Assembly (NCBI RefSeq): GCF_003991155.1
Contig: NZ_CP031293.1
From: Escherichia coli
Lineage (GTDB): Bacteria > Pseudomonadota > Gammaproteobacteria > Enterobacterales > Enterobacteriaceae
Reading direction: 5' to 3' (one strand)
DNA length: 64,000 nt
The notes beneath the pieces were generated by a model that did not search any database, was not told the origin of the DNA, and saw only the letters and a program-made list of their open reading frames with translations. This document shows, one piece after another, positions 3,934 to 13,483 of the stretch. Positions within the stretch are counted from its first letter, which is position 1; every line of letters begins with the position of its first letter. The position numbers were made by a program, and so were the translations under genes.

Positions 3934-5233
3934 TTACACTGGTGTGTTCAGCAAATCGTTAACGGCATCAGATGCCGGGTTACCTGCAGCCAGCGGTGCC
4001 GGTGCACCCTGCATCAGACGATCCAGCGCAGTGTCACTGCGCGCCTGTGCACTCTGTGGTGCTGCGGCCAGAATGCGGCGGGCCGTTTCCACGGTCATAC
4101 CGGGGGTTTCTGCCAGAACGCGCGCCTGTTCTTCGCGTCCGTGAGCCTCCTCACAGTTGAGGATCCCCATAATGCGGCTGTTTTCTGCCGCAACCGCTGC
4201 AGTGATCTGCGCGTTCACGTCCGGCTGCGCCGCGCTGGCGTTTTCGCCCTCCGTCGCTGGCACCACCTCAGTAACGTCAGCCTGCGAAGCAGTGGCTGAA
4301 ACAGTTGTTGATTGAGTCTCTTTGGTCATTCGCCCTCCTGAGAGACGGGATTTATGTGCATCCAGTGCATCACGCATGACGGTGATCGCATCGGTGCTGT
4401 TAACAAGTTCATCAGCCAGTCCGGCATCAATGGCCTCCTGACCGCTGTACACTGCAGCCTCGGTATCCAGCACAGCCTGCACAGACAGGCCGGTATATGC
4501 CGACACCTTCTGCGCAAACATCCGGCGGGTTGCGTCCATCCGGGACTGCAGTGTCTCCCGGACGTCATCCGGAAGATGGCTGTAAGGATTGCCATCCACC
4601 TTATGGCTGCCGCTGTAAATCAGCGTGATTTCCACGCCCTGTTTCTCCAGGGCAGCACCGTAATTACTGTGAGCCATCATGACGCCGATGGAGCCTGTCC
4701 GGGCGGTCTGCGTGACCAGACGCCGGGAGGCGGCACTGGCAAGCAGCTGACCTGCACTGCAGTTCATGTCGTTGGCCAGCGCCCATACCGGTTTTATGTC
4801 ACGCACACGGGCGATGATGTCAGCGCAGTCAAATGCCCCCGCCACCATTCCGCCTGGCGTGTCCATATCGAGCAGAATGCCGTCCACCATCGGGTCGCTG
4901 GCGGCCTGTTGCAGACGGGCGATAATGCCGTTGTAACCGGTCATCCCCGAGTACGGCTGCAGCGCCCGCGTCCGGCTGACCAGCGTGCCGGACACCGGCA
5001 GCACGGCGATGCCGTTCATGACCTGATAACTGCGGGCCTGTCGTGGTCCGTCATCATCACCGGATAATGCCAGCGTCGCGAGTGCCTCCTGGGCAGTCAG
5101 GCTGTCGCCGGACACCGCATCCGTCAGGCGGCTGATCCCAAGCTGGCCTGCAAGCGCACAAAAGAAAACCCGCGCATAGGCGGGTTCAAGCATCAGCGGC
5201 TCATTAAAGGCCATGCTGGCAATATGCGGGAGA

Positions 5234-8934: not shown

Positions 8935-8960
<26 letters not shown>

Positions 8961-9480
8961 TCAGCAACCCCGGTATCAGTTCATCCAGCGCGGCTGCTTT
9001 GTTCATGGCTTTGATGATATCCCGTTTCAGGAAATCAACATGTCGGTTTTCCAGTTCCGGAAAACGCCGCTGCACCGACAGGGGGATCCCGTCGAGAATA
9101 CTGGCAATTTCACCTGCGATACGCGACAGCACGAAAGTACAGAATGCGGTTTCCACCACTTCAGCGGAGTCTCTGGCATTTTTCAGCTCCTGTGCGTCGG
9201 CCTGCGCACGCGTAAGTCGATGGCGTTCGTACTCAATAGTCCCTGGCTGGAGATCTGTCTCGCTGGCCTGCAGCAGTTCTTCAACCTCCCGGCGCAGCTT
9301 TTCGTTCTCAATTTCAGCATCCCTTTCGGCATACCATTTTATGACGGCGGCAGAGTCATAAAGCACCTCATTACCCTTGCCACCGCCTCGCAGAACGGGC
9401 ATTCCCTGTTCCTGCCAGTTCTGAATGGTACGGATACTCGCACCGAAAATGTCAGCCAGCTGCTTTTTGTTGACTTCCAT
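8935..9480 (-). CDS. Nu1: Terminase small subunit Nu1
   Basis: 181 aa, N-terminal HTH region (MEVNKKQLADIFGASIRTIQNWQEQGMP) as lambda Nu1. Confidence 0.93.
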
Positions 9481-10063: not shown

Positions 10064-10425
10064 ACATCCCGGTTTCTTCCACCATCGCACCGGAAAAGCG
10101 ACTATGAGGGTAACCCTGCGTCTGTCAGCACAGTAAAACCCGGTGTGCATCGTTTTTGATTATTCCCGCACACTCACGCAGAAGGAATTCCCCGTCGGGC
10201 TACGGTCATGGTTAATGCGGGAATACGGCGACGATACAGCGCAGCTAAAAGGGTAATAGACGGATAGACCGGTTTATTTCATTCCACAGGATTCTGAGTG
10301 TCCCCAACTTCCTCCAATAGTCTGAGCGTACACCTATATAGTTTTAATTTTCATCAATCCATTTAACTATCGTTTAATTGTTGTCACATAGGATTCTGCC
10401 GTTTTTAACAATGCAGGATAATAAG

Positions 10426-10719
10426 ATGAAAAAAATGTTGTTTTCTGCCGCTCTGGCAATGCTTATTACAGGATGTGCTCAACAGACGTTTACTGTTGGA
10501 AACAAACCGACAGCAGTAACACCAAAGGAAACCATCACCCATCACTTCTTCGTTTCGGGAATTGGACAGGAGAAAACTGTTGATGCAGCCAAAATTTGTG
10601 GCGGCGCAGAAAATGTTGTTAAAACAGAAACCCAGCAAACATTCGTAAATGGATTGCTCGGTTTTATTACTTTAGGCATTTATACTCCGCTGGAAGCGCG
10701 TGTGTATTGCTCACAATAA
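10426..10719 (+). CDS. bor: Bor lipoprotein (serum-resistance, lysogenic conversion)
   Basis: Track ORF 10378..10719; Bor-like sequence from MKKMLFSAALAMLITGCAQQTF (lipobox LITGC), 97 aa; antisense to lysis genes as in lambda. Confidence 0.9.
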   Translation: MKKMLFSAALAMLITGCAQQTFTVGNKPTAVTPKETITHHFFVSGIGQEKTVDAAKICGGAENVVKTETQQTFVNGLLGFITLGIYTPLEARVYCSQ

Positions 10720-10750: not shown

Positions 10751-11212
10751 CTATCTGCACTGCTCATTAATATACTTCTGGGTTCCTTCCAGTTGTTTTT
10801 GCATAGTGATCAGCCTCTCTCTGAGGGTGAAATAATCCCGTTCAGCGGTGTCTGCCAGTCGGGGGGAGGCTGCATTATCCACGCCGGAGGCGGTGGTGGC
10901 TTCACGCACTGACTGACAGACTGCTTTGATGTGCAACCGACGACGACCAGCGGCAACATCATCACGCAGAGCATCATTTTCAGCTTTCGCATCAGCTAAC
11001 TCCTTCGTGTATTTTGCATCGAGCGCAGCAACATCACGCTGACGCATCTGCATGTCAGTAATTGCCGCGTTCGCCAGCTTCAGTTCTCTGGCATTTTTGT
11101 CGCGCTGGGCTTTGTAGGTAATGGCGTTATCACGGTAATGATTAACCGCCCATGACAGACAGACGATGATGCAGATAACCAGAGCGGAGATAATCGCGGT
11201 TAATCTGTTCAT
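10751..11212 (-). CDS. Rz: i-spanin Rz
   Basis: 153 aa, matches recalled lambda Rz. Confidence 0.92.
10810..10992 (-). CDS. Rz1: o-spanin Rz1 (embedded in +1 frame of Rz)
   Basis: 60 aa, lipobox VVGCTS and proline-rich PPPPPAW region, nested inside Rz as in lambda. Confidence 0.88.
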
Positions 11213-11685
11213 ACCTCAATCTCTCTGACCATTCCGCCCGCTTCTTTGAATTTTGCAATCAGGCTGTCAGCCTTATGCTCGAACTGACCATAACCAGCGC
11301 CCGGAAGTGAAGCCCAGATATTGCTGCAACGGTCGATAGCCTGACGAATATCACCGCGATCAATCATCGGTAAAGCGCCACGCTCTTTAATCTGTTGCAG
11401 TGCCACAGCGTCCTGGCTTTTCGGAGAGAAGTCTTTCAGGCCAAGCTGCTTGCGGTAAGCAACCCACCAGCGTGAAAGAAGTTGATAACGGCCTGCAGCT
11501 GTTGATTTGAGTTTCGGGTTTAGCGTGACAAGTTTGCGAGGGTGATCGGAGTAATCAGTGAAGAGTTCTCCACCGACAATAACGTCATAACCGTGGTTAC
11601 GTGTCGGTTGTCGCCCGTTATCCGTTCCCTCTGACCATGCCACCATATCAAGGAAAGCTTTACGCTGGGAATTTAGTACCTGCAT
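11209..11685 (-). CDS. R: Endolysin R (lytic transglycosylase)
   Basis: 158 aa; sequence recognised as lambda R-like (ends ...[14 protein letters not shown]). Confidence 0.92.
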
Positions 11686-11688
11686 AAA

Positions 11689-12015
11689 TTACTCCTTAGA
11701 GCCACCAAACTTGTTACCGATTACTCTCATTGCAGCCCCACGAATAGCATCAACACCGATCAGCCCCACCCCACCACCAATGGCAACAGATAGTGATTTA
11801 GGCCATCCGACATACTCAAGAGCGGATGCAAAAGTCAGCGTCAGAGCGCCACAGAGTAGAATTTCGAGTGTTTTTCGCTTCCAGCCGCCACCACCGCCAA
11901 AATAGGCAATACGTAAACCAGCCATAACAATCGACATAATCACTGCGCCCAGCGGTGTGTCTCCACGCCACCAGCTCTGGACCAACTCCAGCCATGTATT
12001 TGGGTTATGAGGCAT
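11689..12015 (-). CDS. Holin (three predicted TM segments; not lambda S-like)
   Basis: 108 aa, three hydrophobic stretches and charged C-terminus, immediately upstream of endolysin; does not match recalled lambda S. Confidence 0.7.
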   Translation of the reverse strand: MPHNPNTWLELVQSWWRGDTPLGAVIMSIVMAGLRIAYFGGGGGWKRKTLEILLCGALTLTFASALEYVGWPKSLSVAIGGGVGLIGVDAIRGAAMRVIGNKFGGSKE

Positions 12016-12159
12016 TTGTAGTTATCTCTCACCTCGCTGATACAGCAGGTGCAAATTGAGGAAACATCATGTACCGCAAATCAGAAGCGGAAACGTCAAA
12101 GAAGCCGAGTCAATGGATAACTGCGGGATAGGCTAGGACCAAGGAATCCCCAGACCCAG

Positions 12160-12186
12160 AAACGACAAAACCCGCTCGATGGCGGG
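12160..12186 (-). terminator. Putative rho-independent terminator on minus strand (tR'-like, upstream of holin)
   Basis: Stem CCCGC (12171-12175) / GCGGG (12182-12186) with 6-nt loop, followed on the minus strand by TTTTGTCGTTT. Confidence 0.45.
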
Positions 12187-12306
12187 TTTAAGCTGTGTGG
12201 CGAAGTGAGCACACTTAACAGATTACGATATTTTTTGCGTACGCGTTAGTGTTTTGATAGAATTTTCAGCCACATAAAAATTCATTCTTATAATTCGGGA
12301 TATATA

Positions 12307-13170
12307 ATGGATATAACTTGTTTAGAATGTGGCAATGTTCTTGACGACCCAACTGTAGCTTGCGATAAATGCGGTGCCACGCCTCATGTTGTAGTGCTGG
12401 GCAAACAATCGTACTTTCCTATTGGTGCTGTAACAGCAAATCTTGAAAAAAATGATTCAAGAGCATTTGATTATCGATTAGGTGAAGTTTGGGATCTAAA
12501 AAATGAAGTCACATCTGAATTCATAACCAGAATTGAGAAAAAATTTAGCCGAAAAAACAAATTTCATAACTTCCTAGACTCAGATCACAACCCTTCATCC
12601 ATTCCTACGATCCTAAAAAAATACATTAATAAGAATAATGAATTCATTGATTTATCTAGAGCTATAATAGAGAAGCTTAAACATAATGCTAATAACGAAT
12701 CGAGAGTTGCCCAACTTCAGGGGGGGAGCGTTGTTTTCATCCACTATAAGTCTACCGAACCAGAGGATTTGGGGAAACTTCTAATCGTAATGGTTGATAA
12801 ACAAAGCGCCTATGACTTTGATTCGGATAAGTTGACCCCAACAAGATTAAATCCAATTAATACCGATGCCTTACGGCAGGCTGCGATGTTCGATTTAACT
12901 TTATTCGAAGCCAGTTATCCAGAAAACAAGGGTGACTCATATGTACATTTCTTGCAAGGTAAATCTAAAAGCGATTTTTTCAAAGACTCATTAGGTTGCC
13001 GACATGATTCGGACAATAAAAGAAGCATTCAGCAATTATTCAGTGCTATAGATATTTTTGCTAGTAAAAACTCACTCGGTCGTGTACTGCGTGATACTAT
13101 TGACAATGAAGTTAAATCCTTACTGGAAAAAAATCAAAAGATAAACACGGAAATAAGTCCGTTAAGATAG
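12307..13170 (+). CDS. AT-rich cargo gene 1: N-terminal zinc-ribbon protein of unknown function (likely frame-broken; see open frame 13128-13481)
   Basis: 287-aa ORF; N-terminus CLECG...CDKCG (C-x2-C / C-x2-C); visibly AT-rich; antisense to the phage late operon between Q and holin. Confidence 0.6.
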   Translation: MDITCLECGNVLDDPTVACDKCGATPHVVVLGKQSYFPIGAVTANLEKNDSRAFDYRLGEVWDLKNEVTSEFITRIEKKFSRKNKFHNFLDSDHNPSSIPTILKKYINKNNEFIDLSRAIIEKLKHNANNESRVAQLQGGSVVFIHYKSTEPEDLGKLLIVMVDKQSAYDFDSDKLTPTRLNPINTDALRQAAMFDLTLFEASYPENKGDSYVHFLQGKSKSDFFKDSLGCRHDSDNKRSIQQLFSAIDIFASKNSLGRVLRDTIDNEVKSLLEKNQKINTEISPLR

Positions 13171-13481
13171 AGGATATTTCAAAAATAATTGACTCATGCC
13201 TGACTGATTCACACAAATGTAAGGGAACGTTTGTCGATTTTGTTAATCTTAATGGTTTCCAGATTGACCCTCAATTTGAACCAACTCCTAAAGCAGCTGA
13301 AAGCGCGCTTACAATTGAAGTGGCAGATAACGACAATAATTTTAAGTTGAAAATAATGCGTGGAGCTATTGGAGACGAAAAGTCAAATAAGCCTGTAATT
13401 CTCACTGACAACAAATGCGAAATTGTGATAAAATTGAGTCAGGCAAATTATGATGAACTCAAAAGATATAGAGACAGCTAA
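13128..13481 (+). other. Start-less open frame (-1 relative to cargo gene 1) that probably encodes its C-terminal part
   Basis: Frame open from 13116 to stop TAA 13479-13481, about 115 protein-like codons, no long ATG-initiated ORF; begins at the A7 tract 13127-13133; ends 2 nt before the next gene's ATG. Confidence 0.5.
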
Positions 13482-13483
13482 TA

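Follow-up and report, generated by a model that had tools for sequence, protein, structure and literature searches.

Predicted late promoter and Q-sensitive terminator next to the holin gene, beyond an antisense DS-1 module, in a DLP12-like prophage of Escherichia coli

The 64,000-nucleotide (nt) stretch of Escherichia coli DNA analyzed here (contig NZ_CP031293.1 of assembly GCF_003991155.1; hereafter, the window) holds a DLP12-like lambdoid prophage on the minus strand. In this prophage, the gene for the antiterminator Q (14678-15034, minus strand; 118 amino acids [aa], the short Q21-family type) and the first late gene, the holin gene S (11689-12015, minus strand; Pfam PF05106, E = 5.7e-25), are separated by two plus-strand genes of the DS-1 anti-phage system (12307-13481 and 13484-14698). 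The remaining gap between DS-1 and the holin gene contains a minus-strand late regulatory cassette (12160-12260) that combines the predicted late promoter pR', a candidate Q-binding element, an initial transcribed block, and a terminator-like hairpin. The hairpin is likely to be the Q-sensitive terminator, and the whole of the compact late cassette would lie within 12160-12260 on the minus strand.

The product of the Q gene belongs to the Pfam family PF06530 (E = 2.7e-47; 160 bits against a cut-off of 26) and is labelled "antiterminator Q family protein" in RefSeq. It is 92% identical to the Q protein of Stx2a_WGPS2, one of the Shiga toxin (Stx) phages, and gives a weak but specific match to the structures of phage 21 Q (E = 0.0013). 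Nucleotide homology among the Q genes ends at 14707-14712, ∼30 nt before the stop codon; the 3' tail of the gene (14678-14711, minus strand), which includes the overlap with the second DS-1 gene, lies in cargo-specific DNA, and the C-terminal tail of Q changes with each cargo type. The distance from the Q stop codon to the −10 hexamer of the cassette is 2452 base pairs (bp), so the cassette is not immediately downstream of Q. A scan of both strands at the Q/DS-1 junction found no terminator-like site between the convergent genes, so that any read-through of the early operon past Q would be antisense to DS-1 and any read-through of DS-1 would be antisense to Q.

Both cargo proteins score above the NCBIfam equivalog cut-offs for DS-1. 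The product of gene 1, a YejK/NA37-like nucleoid-associated protein (Pfam NA37/YejK), matches NF053868 (DS1_1_antiphage) with 349 bits against a cut-off of 330, and the product of gene 2 matches NF053869 (DS1_2_antiphage) with 375 bits against a cut-off of 315; their RefSeq labels are "nucleoid-associated anti-phage protein" and "anti-phage protein," respectively. DS-1, with its YejK domain, is a validated system of the DefensePredictor study (PMC13092281). PADLOC returned no hit for the two cargo proteins because its 2023 library is older than DS-1. Gene 1 is frameshifted, with a run of seven A residues at 13127-13133 where most other, intact E. coli copies have eight (the intact gene comprises 1176 nt), so that only gene 2 is intact here. 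The frameshift could represent a real inactivation, a phase-variation-like slippage, or a sequencing error. Candidate promoter motifs for the cargo are found at 12254-12306 (plus strand): TTGATA at 12254-12259, followed after 16 nt by AAAAAT at 12276-12281, and a perfect TATAAT, read directly from the sequence, at 12289-12294. This stretch is not shared with the cassette of Shigella phage SfII, whose homology to the window starts at 12255. The semi-conserved A-rich stretch at 12250-12260, upstream of pR', has the minus-strand sequence TAnCAAAA. Its plus-strand reading, TTG(A/T)(T/A)A, is a −35-like hexamer that faces the cargo; the cassette may supply a shared −35 element to incoming cargo promoters, or an UP element to pR'.

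The hairpin consists of a minus-strand stem-loop at 12189..12168 (AAACCCGC/CATCGA/GCGGGTTT), with an 8-bp stem that includes 5 G-C pairs, followed by the T-rich tail TGTCGTTTCT to 12160; together, they form a predicted tR'-type intrinsic terminator at 12160-12189. It is the top-ranked terminator-like site in 11600-15400. An earlier note on this DNA had described a minus-strand hairpin ∼150 bp upstream of the holin gene, had compared it to tR', and had placed the end of Q 2.5 kilobases (kb) away, in a 21-nt overlap with the second cargo gene. These observations are borne out: the tail ends 144 nt before the holin ATG, Q is 2.45 kb away, the overlap covers 14678-14698, and the hairpin can be aligned, column by column, with the rho-independent terminator that is annotated first after pR' in phage 933W. 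A predicted intrinsic terminator shortly after pR', followed by the late genes S-R-Rz, is present. Relative to the predicted transcription start, the hairpin occupies positions +25 to +46, and the terminator with its tail extends to +54.

Pattern matching alone provides weak evidence for this hairpin, and the case for it rests on the comparison with other phages. A hairpin with a free energy of −7 kcal/mol or lower and a subsequent T-tract that ends no later than +70 from the predicted start are present in 40 of the 58 distinct related cassettes; shuffled sequences yield 5.3 of 58, and control segments of real DNA taken 400 nt downstream yield 6 of 56. The hairpins of these cassettes fall into at least six mutually unrelated stem sequences, which indicates that the predicted terminator function is conserved and its sequence is not.

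The promoter part of the cassette was recognized by extracting the interval between the antisense cargo and the first late gene. This yielded a block of ∼100 bp at the cargo boundary that is common to SfII, Stx2a_WGPS2, Stx1_14040, DLP12, ev243, and PA-2; the cassette can be aligned with those of SfII, WGPS2, Stx1_14040, DLP12, Stx2_14040, and 933W. In BLAST searches, window positions 12255..11900 are 92.7% identical to SfII and positions 12243..12030 are ∼74% identical to PA-2, ev243, and many other lambdoid phages. The 933W record annotates pR' (−35 TTTACG, −10 TATCAT), qut, and a rho-independent terminator at the aligned positions. The −10 hexamer of the window, TAATCT (12220-12225, minus strand), aligns with the TATCAT of 933W, and 6 of the 7 phages in the alignment share its T1, A2, and T6; a weak −35 lies around 12242-12248. 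An alternative −10 sequence five nt upstream, TATCGT, was rejected, as it is not conserved in DLP12 or 933W.

The start site can be transferred from prophage Sp5 of E. coli Sakai, where the start of the late promoter has been mapped by differential RNA sequencing by Sy et al. (PMC7547250). The Sp5 transcript has its 3' end 258 nt past the start and is cut by RNase E at +173, between GU and AUU (PMC7547250). As the coordinates in that paper refer to NC_002695.1, not to version.2, the start was placed by these internal distances. An A residue seven nt after TATCAT, position 746 of the Sp5 locus (L090), puts the end of the T-tract of the second terminator at +258 and the GUAUU cut at exactly +173, and no other start fits both distances. 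The homologous position in the window is 12213 (±1 nt, minus strand), which makes this promoter a homolog of the experimentally mapped pR' of 933W/Sp5.

Downstream of the −10, the cassette contains an initial transcribed block (GTTAAGAGTGGTTACTTCGCCACAC; 12195-12219, minus strand) that is conserved across all Q classes and is a putative sigma-dependent pause region. Its +1 to +19 portion covers the position annotated as qut in 933W, where 933W has TACATT and the window has CACTTC. Upstream, there is an A-tract at about −42 to −39; in most relatives it is longer (CAAAAA) and, judged against the published consensus, resembles a proximal UP-element subsite, which could offset the weak −35.

The promoter also contains the block CTAACGCGTACGCAAAAA (12232-12249, minus strand; −36 to −19), which is essentially invariant in ∼55 distinct cassettes of the same group (group A), in which the stretch from this block to the −10 and the terminators are variable. 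The block contains the perfect palindrome GCGTACGC at 12237-12244 (−31 to −24), a candidate Q-binding site. Other classes of Q are accompanied by a different palindrome at the same promoter position. Thus, Q proteins of the window group, which have a GTIRKELQ-type helix in the sequence CSDGTIRKELQTA, are paired with the core GCGTACGC; those of the QuuD (GYIGKRLQ) type, with CSDGYIGKRLQKA, are paired with ACGTACGT; the closely related 933W type, with CSDTCIGKRLHKA, goes with ACGATCGT; and a third class, with the pattern K(S/D)EKxIRIExQxA, goes with GCGGTCCGC. The helix-turn-helix class of Q matches the core sequence, one to one, in 205 of 206 loci, which encode 78 distinct Q proteins, and the sole mismatch is a locus that is rearranged upstream of the −10. 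Given that the variable slot parts Q from the cassette, this pairing must have survived many module exchanges, which argues for functional coupling between the Q class and the core. Phage 21 Q and lambda Q bind between the −35 and the −10 (PMC6606751). A search for the phage 21 repeat, TGAGCA-N2-TGAGCA with up to 2 mismatches, gave no relevant hit in the window, only two matches elsewhere, which is below chance. A single plus-strand TGAGCA at 12206-12211 was rejected as such a repeat, since it is the transcribed block read backwards. The symmetry of the palindromes suggests symmetric binding by Q, unlike the direct repeat of phage 21.

The layout of the window recurs throughout the relatives of this Q. 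A search of the IMG/VR database with an alignment of Q proteins yielded 80 loci with Q proteins 83 to 100% identical to that of the window; the statistics of the slot between Q and pR' were collected for 79 loci from IMG/VR, the reference phages, and the window itself. In all 79, the cassette is found downstream of Q on the same strand, at a distance of 32 bp to 3.8 kb, and the intervening DNA falls into 38 cargo clusters with 28 to 45% GC. Of the 73 non-nested slot open reading frames (ORFs) that reach 100 aa, all but one run antisense to Q (20,903 codons versus 346). The stop codons of Q and cargo overlap in 6 of the 38 clusters and are 0 to 43 nt apart in 24 more. Empty slots, with the classical Q-pR' arrangement, also occur: the Q stop codon is 32 bp from the −10 in Stx2_14040, 39 bp in the IMG/VR locus L040, and 21 to 40 bp in further loci of groups C and D, and in 933W the cassette overlaps the 3' end of Q. 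The slots of the third Q class are both empty and occupied, and those of the QuuD type carry a porin gene.

Family scans of 62 representative cargo proteins identified Kiwa (KwaA/KwaB), four DS-1 variants, DS-8, DS-9, the PADLOC candidates M53 and S42, cytosine methyltransferases, PtuA-like ATPases, and the known porin; many of the 62 had no family match. The slot between Q and pR' looks like a defence hotspot. The strict antisense orientation over 38 cargo types suggests selection, and its simplest reason would be that constitutive transcription of the cargo is aimed away from the lysis genes. One pair of loci, the empty L040 and the occupied L056, have identical Q tails and differ by 1.57 kb of cargo flanked by the direct repeat (G/A)TTATGA (L040 7340-7365; L056 7340-7360 and 8900-8945), which suggests loss or gain of the cargo through microhomology.

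The earlier note considered two positions for pR'. The one next to Q, just below 14678, would make late transcription run antisense through the whole DS-1 module to the hairpin and the holin gene. Although pR' classically lies beside Q in lambda, 21, 82, and 933W, and although Q-dependent transcription in phi80 can cross an antisense defence gene (PMC11364771), the DNA below 14707 is specific to the cargo, differs with each of the 38 cargo types, and is devoid of the cassette. Neither the cassette nor the invariant block nor the conserved transcribed block occurs in the window outside 12195-12249, and the relatives with empty slots show that the conserved cassette normally follows Q. The search for −10, −35, and qut-like elements that had been proposed for both positions succeeded in 12187-12306 by homology but not by consensus, and below 14678 it returned only a weak minus-strand promoter-like match, at 14408..14381. 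The match falls within AT-rich coding sequence, and the cargo contains no more promoter-like hits than expected by chance (12, versus 10.8 ± 3.9 expected in shuffled sequences). A promoter beside Q is accordingly extremely improbable. The other position, in 12187-12306 beside the cargo promoter, is favored by the conserved promoter cassette at 12213-12260, of which the 64-kb window has a single copy, with the invariant promoter block and the transcribed block occurring once each. The empty-slot relatives, the single cassette copy, and the chance-level promoter hits in the cargo together indicate that the cargo has come to lie between Q and its promoter. The comparisons thus support a pR' that adjoins the holin gene, back-to-back with the cargo promoter region, and late transcription that would not cross the cargo. 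The layout, which had been called unusual, does differ from that of lambda but is common in this Q subfamily (DLP12, PA-2, SfII, and several Stx phages).

A different doubt is whether the cassette, even if correctly identified, has decayed in this prophage so that the late switch no longer works properly. The initial transcribed block of the window carries three substitutions (AGTGGTTACT to TGTGCTCACT), two of which are private to this variant, the −35 is weak, and gene 1 of DS-1 is frameshifted; DLP12-type prophages, moreover, are often defective. However, the third substitution, T to C (GGTCACT), is common among other cassettes, and the same cassette variant is present in 4 loci including the window, 3 of them on IMG/VR contigs. 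The genes for Q, the holin, the endolysin, Rz, and the small terminase subunit and the large ORFs downstream are all intact. The stretch from Q through the cargo to the holin gene is found with at least 80% query coverage in 78 of 5426 complete E. coli genomes, and the region is at least 99% identical in 75 records, which points to a stable lineage and makes decay unlikely. Another possibility is that the holin operon is transcribed mainly from a Q-independent promoter, possibly in 12016-12159, of the RpoE type represented by essDp of DLP12; RpoE-dependent transcription of the DLP12 lysis cassette was reportedly described by Rueggeberg et al. in a 2015 paper that PMC7918800 cites. TTGACT and TTGACG motifs do occur downstream of the hairpin, but neither has a −10 at a workable spacing, for which reason a promoter there was rejected, and no promoter-like minus-strand site was found in 12016-12160. 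A constitutive promoter right before the holin gene would also be a hazard to the host, and this scenario appears very unlikely, even more so than decay.

Several observations nevertheless weigh against reading 12160-12260 as a working Q-controlled cassette. A consensus scan of the minus strand in 12187-12306 found no sigma-70-type promoter, in line with a poor −35 (TAACGC/AACGCG) and a −10 that matches the consensus at 3 of 6 positions, so that no sigma-70 consensus promoter is recognizable. No clear −10-like pause element was recognized in the initial transcribed block of the window, the same block that carries the three substitutions. The start site is transferred from Sp5, which is not a group A cassette, and 933W Q is only ∼46% identical to the Q of the window. 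For the hairpin, the 3.8 kb scanned contain 8 terminator-like sites, versus 3.4 ± 1.8 in shuffled sequences, the fold z-score of the 54-nt RNA is only −1.45, and the T-tract is interrupted (TTTTGTCGTTT). The RNA detected in Sp5 extends beyond the homologous first hairpin as far as a second terminator, at +258 (PMC7547250), which means that the first hairpin may be leaky, and neither the scan nor the comparison with Sp5 revealed a second terminator downstream of the first hairpin in the window. Finally, the match between Q class and core could partly reflect physical linkage rather than binding specificity.

The reading of 12160-12260 as a compact late cassette entails the following course of events. 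The cassette would be read in the order A-rich stretch, CTAACGCGTACGCAAAAA overlapping the weak −35, −10, start, initial transcribed block, and terminator. Polymerase that initiates at pR' in the lysogen would make a predicted terminated RNA of ∼50 nt and then stop. Upon induction, Q produced from the early operon 2.45 kb away would diffuse to the cassette and load onto the polymerase, perhaps by way of the palindrome, and the Q-loaded polymerase would continue beyond the hairpin to transcribe S-R-Rz and, after these, the genes for packaging and the head. The DS-1 genes would stay outside the late operon, pointing away from the lysis genes and using their own promoter in 12254-12306. Recombination with one crossover in the conserved body of Q and another in the invariant promoter block appears to swap modules in this hypervariable slot. 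Such exchange would account for the origin of the last ∼10 codons of Q in the cargo module, whose 3' end they overlap.

In this arrangement, the late operon would be wired through a ∼100-bp switch next to the holin gene, with a 2.4-kb antisense block as a swappable anti-phage module. A broader proposal, that the hotspot is dedicated and orientation-locked, that the convergent packing is functional, and that this Q subfamily reads the palindromes GCGTACGC, ACGTACGT, or GCGGTCCGC, is tentative and, taken as a whole, rather doubtful. If it is true, read-through from the cargo in the lysogen would provide an anti-Q RNA that damps leaky lysis, and read-through past Q after induction would silence the defence genes during the prophage's own lytic cycle. 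What merits further work are the statistics on the slot and the palindromes that are candidate Q-binding sites. For the discovery of new prophage defence systems, the stretch from Q to pR' offers a rich source that is simple to locate. In Stx phages, Shiga toxin expression is under the control of the same cassette; having a candidate Q-binding element for every Q class could shed light on the differences in toxin output among q alleles.

Among the closest known systems are 933W and Sp5, which share with the window a PF06530 Q, an aligned −10, the start position, the initial transcribed block, and the first hairpin. Their pR' is constitutively active, is terminated in lysogens, and is the source of the small RNA StxS (PMC7547250). 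In these phages, in contrast to the window, the cassette abuts or overlaps the Q stop codon with no cargo between them, the −35 (TTTACG) is better, the core is ACGATCGT instead of GCGTACGC, and a second terminator at +258 defines StxS. The window matches only nt 2 to 46 of the Sp5 transcript, and no match to the functional 74-nt 3' part of StxS was found in it, so that it does not encode an StxS. A 26-nt near-copy of the Sp5 terminator hairpin (GAACCCGCCTATGCGCGGGTTTTCTTTT) is present at 5162-5187 (minus strand), inside a long late-strand ORF whose product resembles the lambda C protein. It was rejected as a terminator because of this coding context and is most likely a chance resemblance.

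The window has the architecture of the quuD-nmpC-essD region of DLP12 and the lc region of PA-2, which share the short Q21-family Q, antisense cargo, and the same cassette and hairpin before the holin gene; DLP12 also has the same neighbors, ybcO-rusA-ylcG-Q. The cargo of DLP12 and PA-2, however, is a porin gene, not a defence system. DLP12 differs further in the full C-terminal tail of QuuD, a spacer of ∼190 bp before the cargo, the core ACGTACGT, and the holin family (essD, versus lambda-type S in the window). Rueggeberg et al. are reported to have placed, in 2013 and 2015, the promoter that responds to DLP12 Q past nmpC and upstream of essD, which agrees with the placement of pR' here. The layout has long been documented in DLP12, and the window is an ordinary member of this type with DS-1 as its cargo.

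Phage 21 Q, which loads onto a sigma-dependent paused complex and prevents formation of the terminator hairpin (10.1101/651190; PMC6606751), belongs to the same protein family, although the sequence similarity is marginal (the E value of 0.0013 given above) and it comprises 162 aa, versus 118 in the window. Its binding site is a direct repeat of TGAGCA, whereas the candidate site of the window is a palindrome that lies farther upstream (−31 to −24). In the "noncontiguous operon" of the phi80 tai gene, a prophage defence gene is likewise antisense to phage transcription near a Q-controlled region, but there the gene follows the late promoter, and Q-dependent transcription runs across it (PMC11364771). 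In the window, the predicted start at 12213 has the cargo (12307-14698) upstream of it and divergent from it, so that, unlike in phi80, the cargo could be crossed only by read-through from the early operon. Lambda has a dedicated promoter within Q, the cII-dependent paQ, which offers a parallel in that transcription antisense to Q could damp Q in lysogens; anti-Q RNA in the window would differ in being a by-product of cargo read-through. The paQ transcript has been mentioned as a regulatory RNA (PMC7547250). By analogy, a regulatory role akin to that of lambda paQ or phi80 tai is possible. Two further reports, Zhang et al. 2018 (PMC6266700) and the Pas small RNA preprint (PMC13192938), added nothing on this layout.

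The 144-nt leader between the terminator and the holin gene (12016-12159, minus strand) is part of the stretch that is 92.7% identical to SfII, and a motif scan of its minus strand found neither a second terminator-like site nor a promoter-like site. An Rfam scan of 11600-15400 yielded nothing relevant. After the holin gene, the endolysin gene (11209-11685) and the Rz gene (10751-11212) follow on the same strand, with Rz1 also present, and then the gene for the small terminase subunit (8935-9480, minus strand), beyond which lie more large minus-strand ORFs consistent with roles in packaging and head formation. Between Rz and the small terminase subunit gene, the plus strand carries a gene for a bor/iss lipoprotein (10378-10719; Pfam Lambda_Bor). 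It represents a second antisense cargo gene, this one downstream of pR' and within the path of late transcription.

On the early side, the minus-strand gene order is BstA, a NinB-like ybcN homolog, ninE, ybcO (15615-15944), rusA (15256-15618), ylcG, and Q. The abortive-infection defence protein BstA is encoded at 16720-17649 (minus strand; PADLOC BstA, E = 3.6e-121), upstream of the nin-like region of the same prophage, which thus carries two defence modules, BstA and DS-1.

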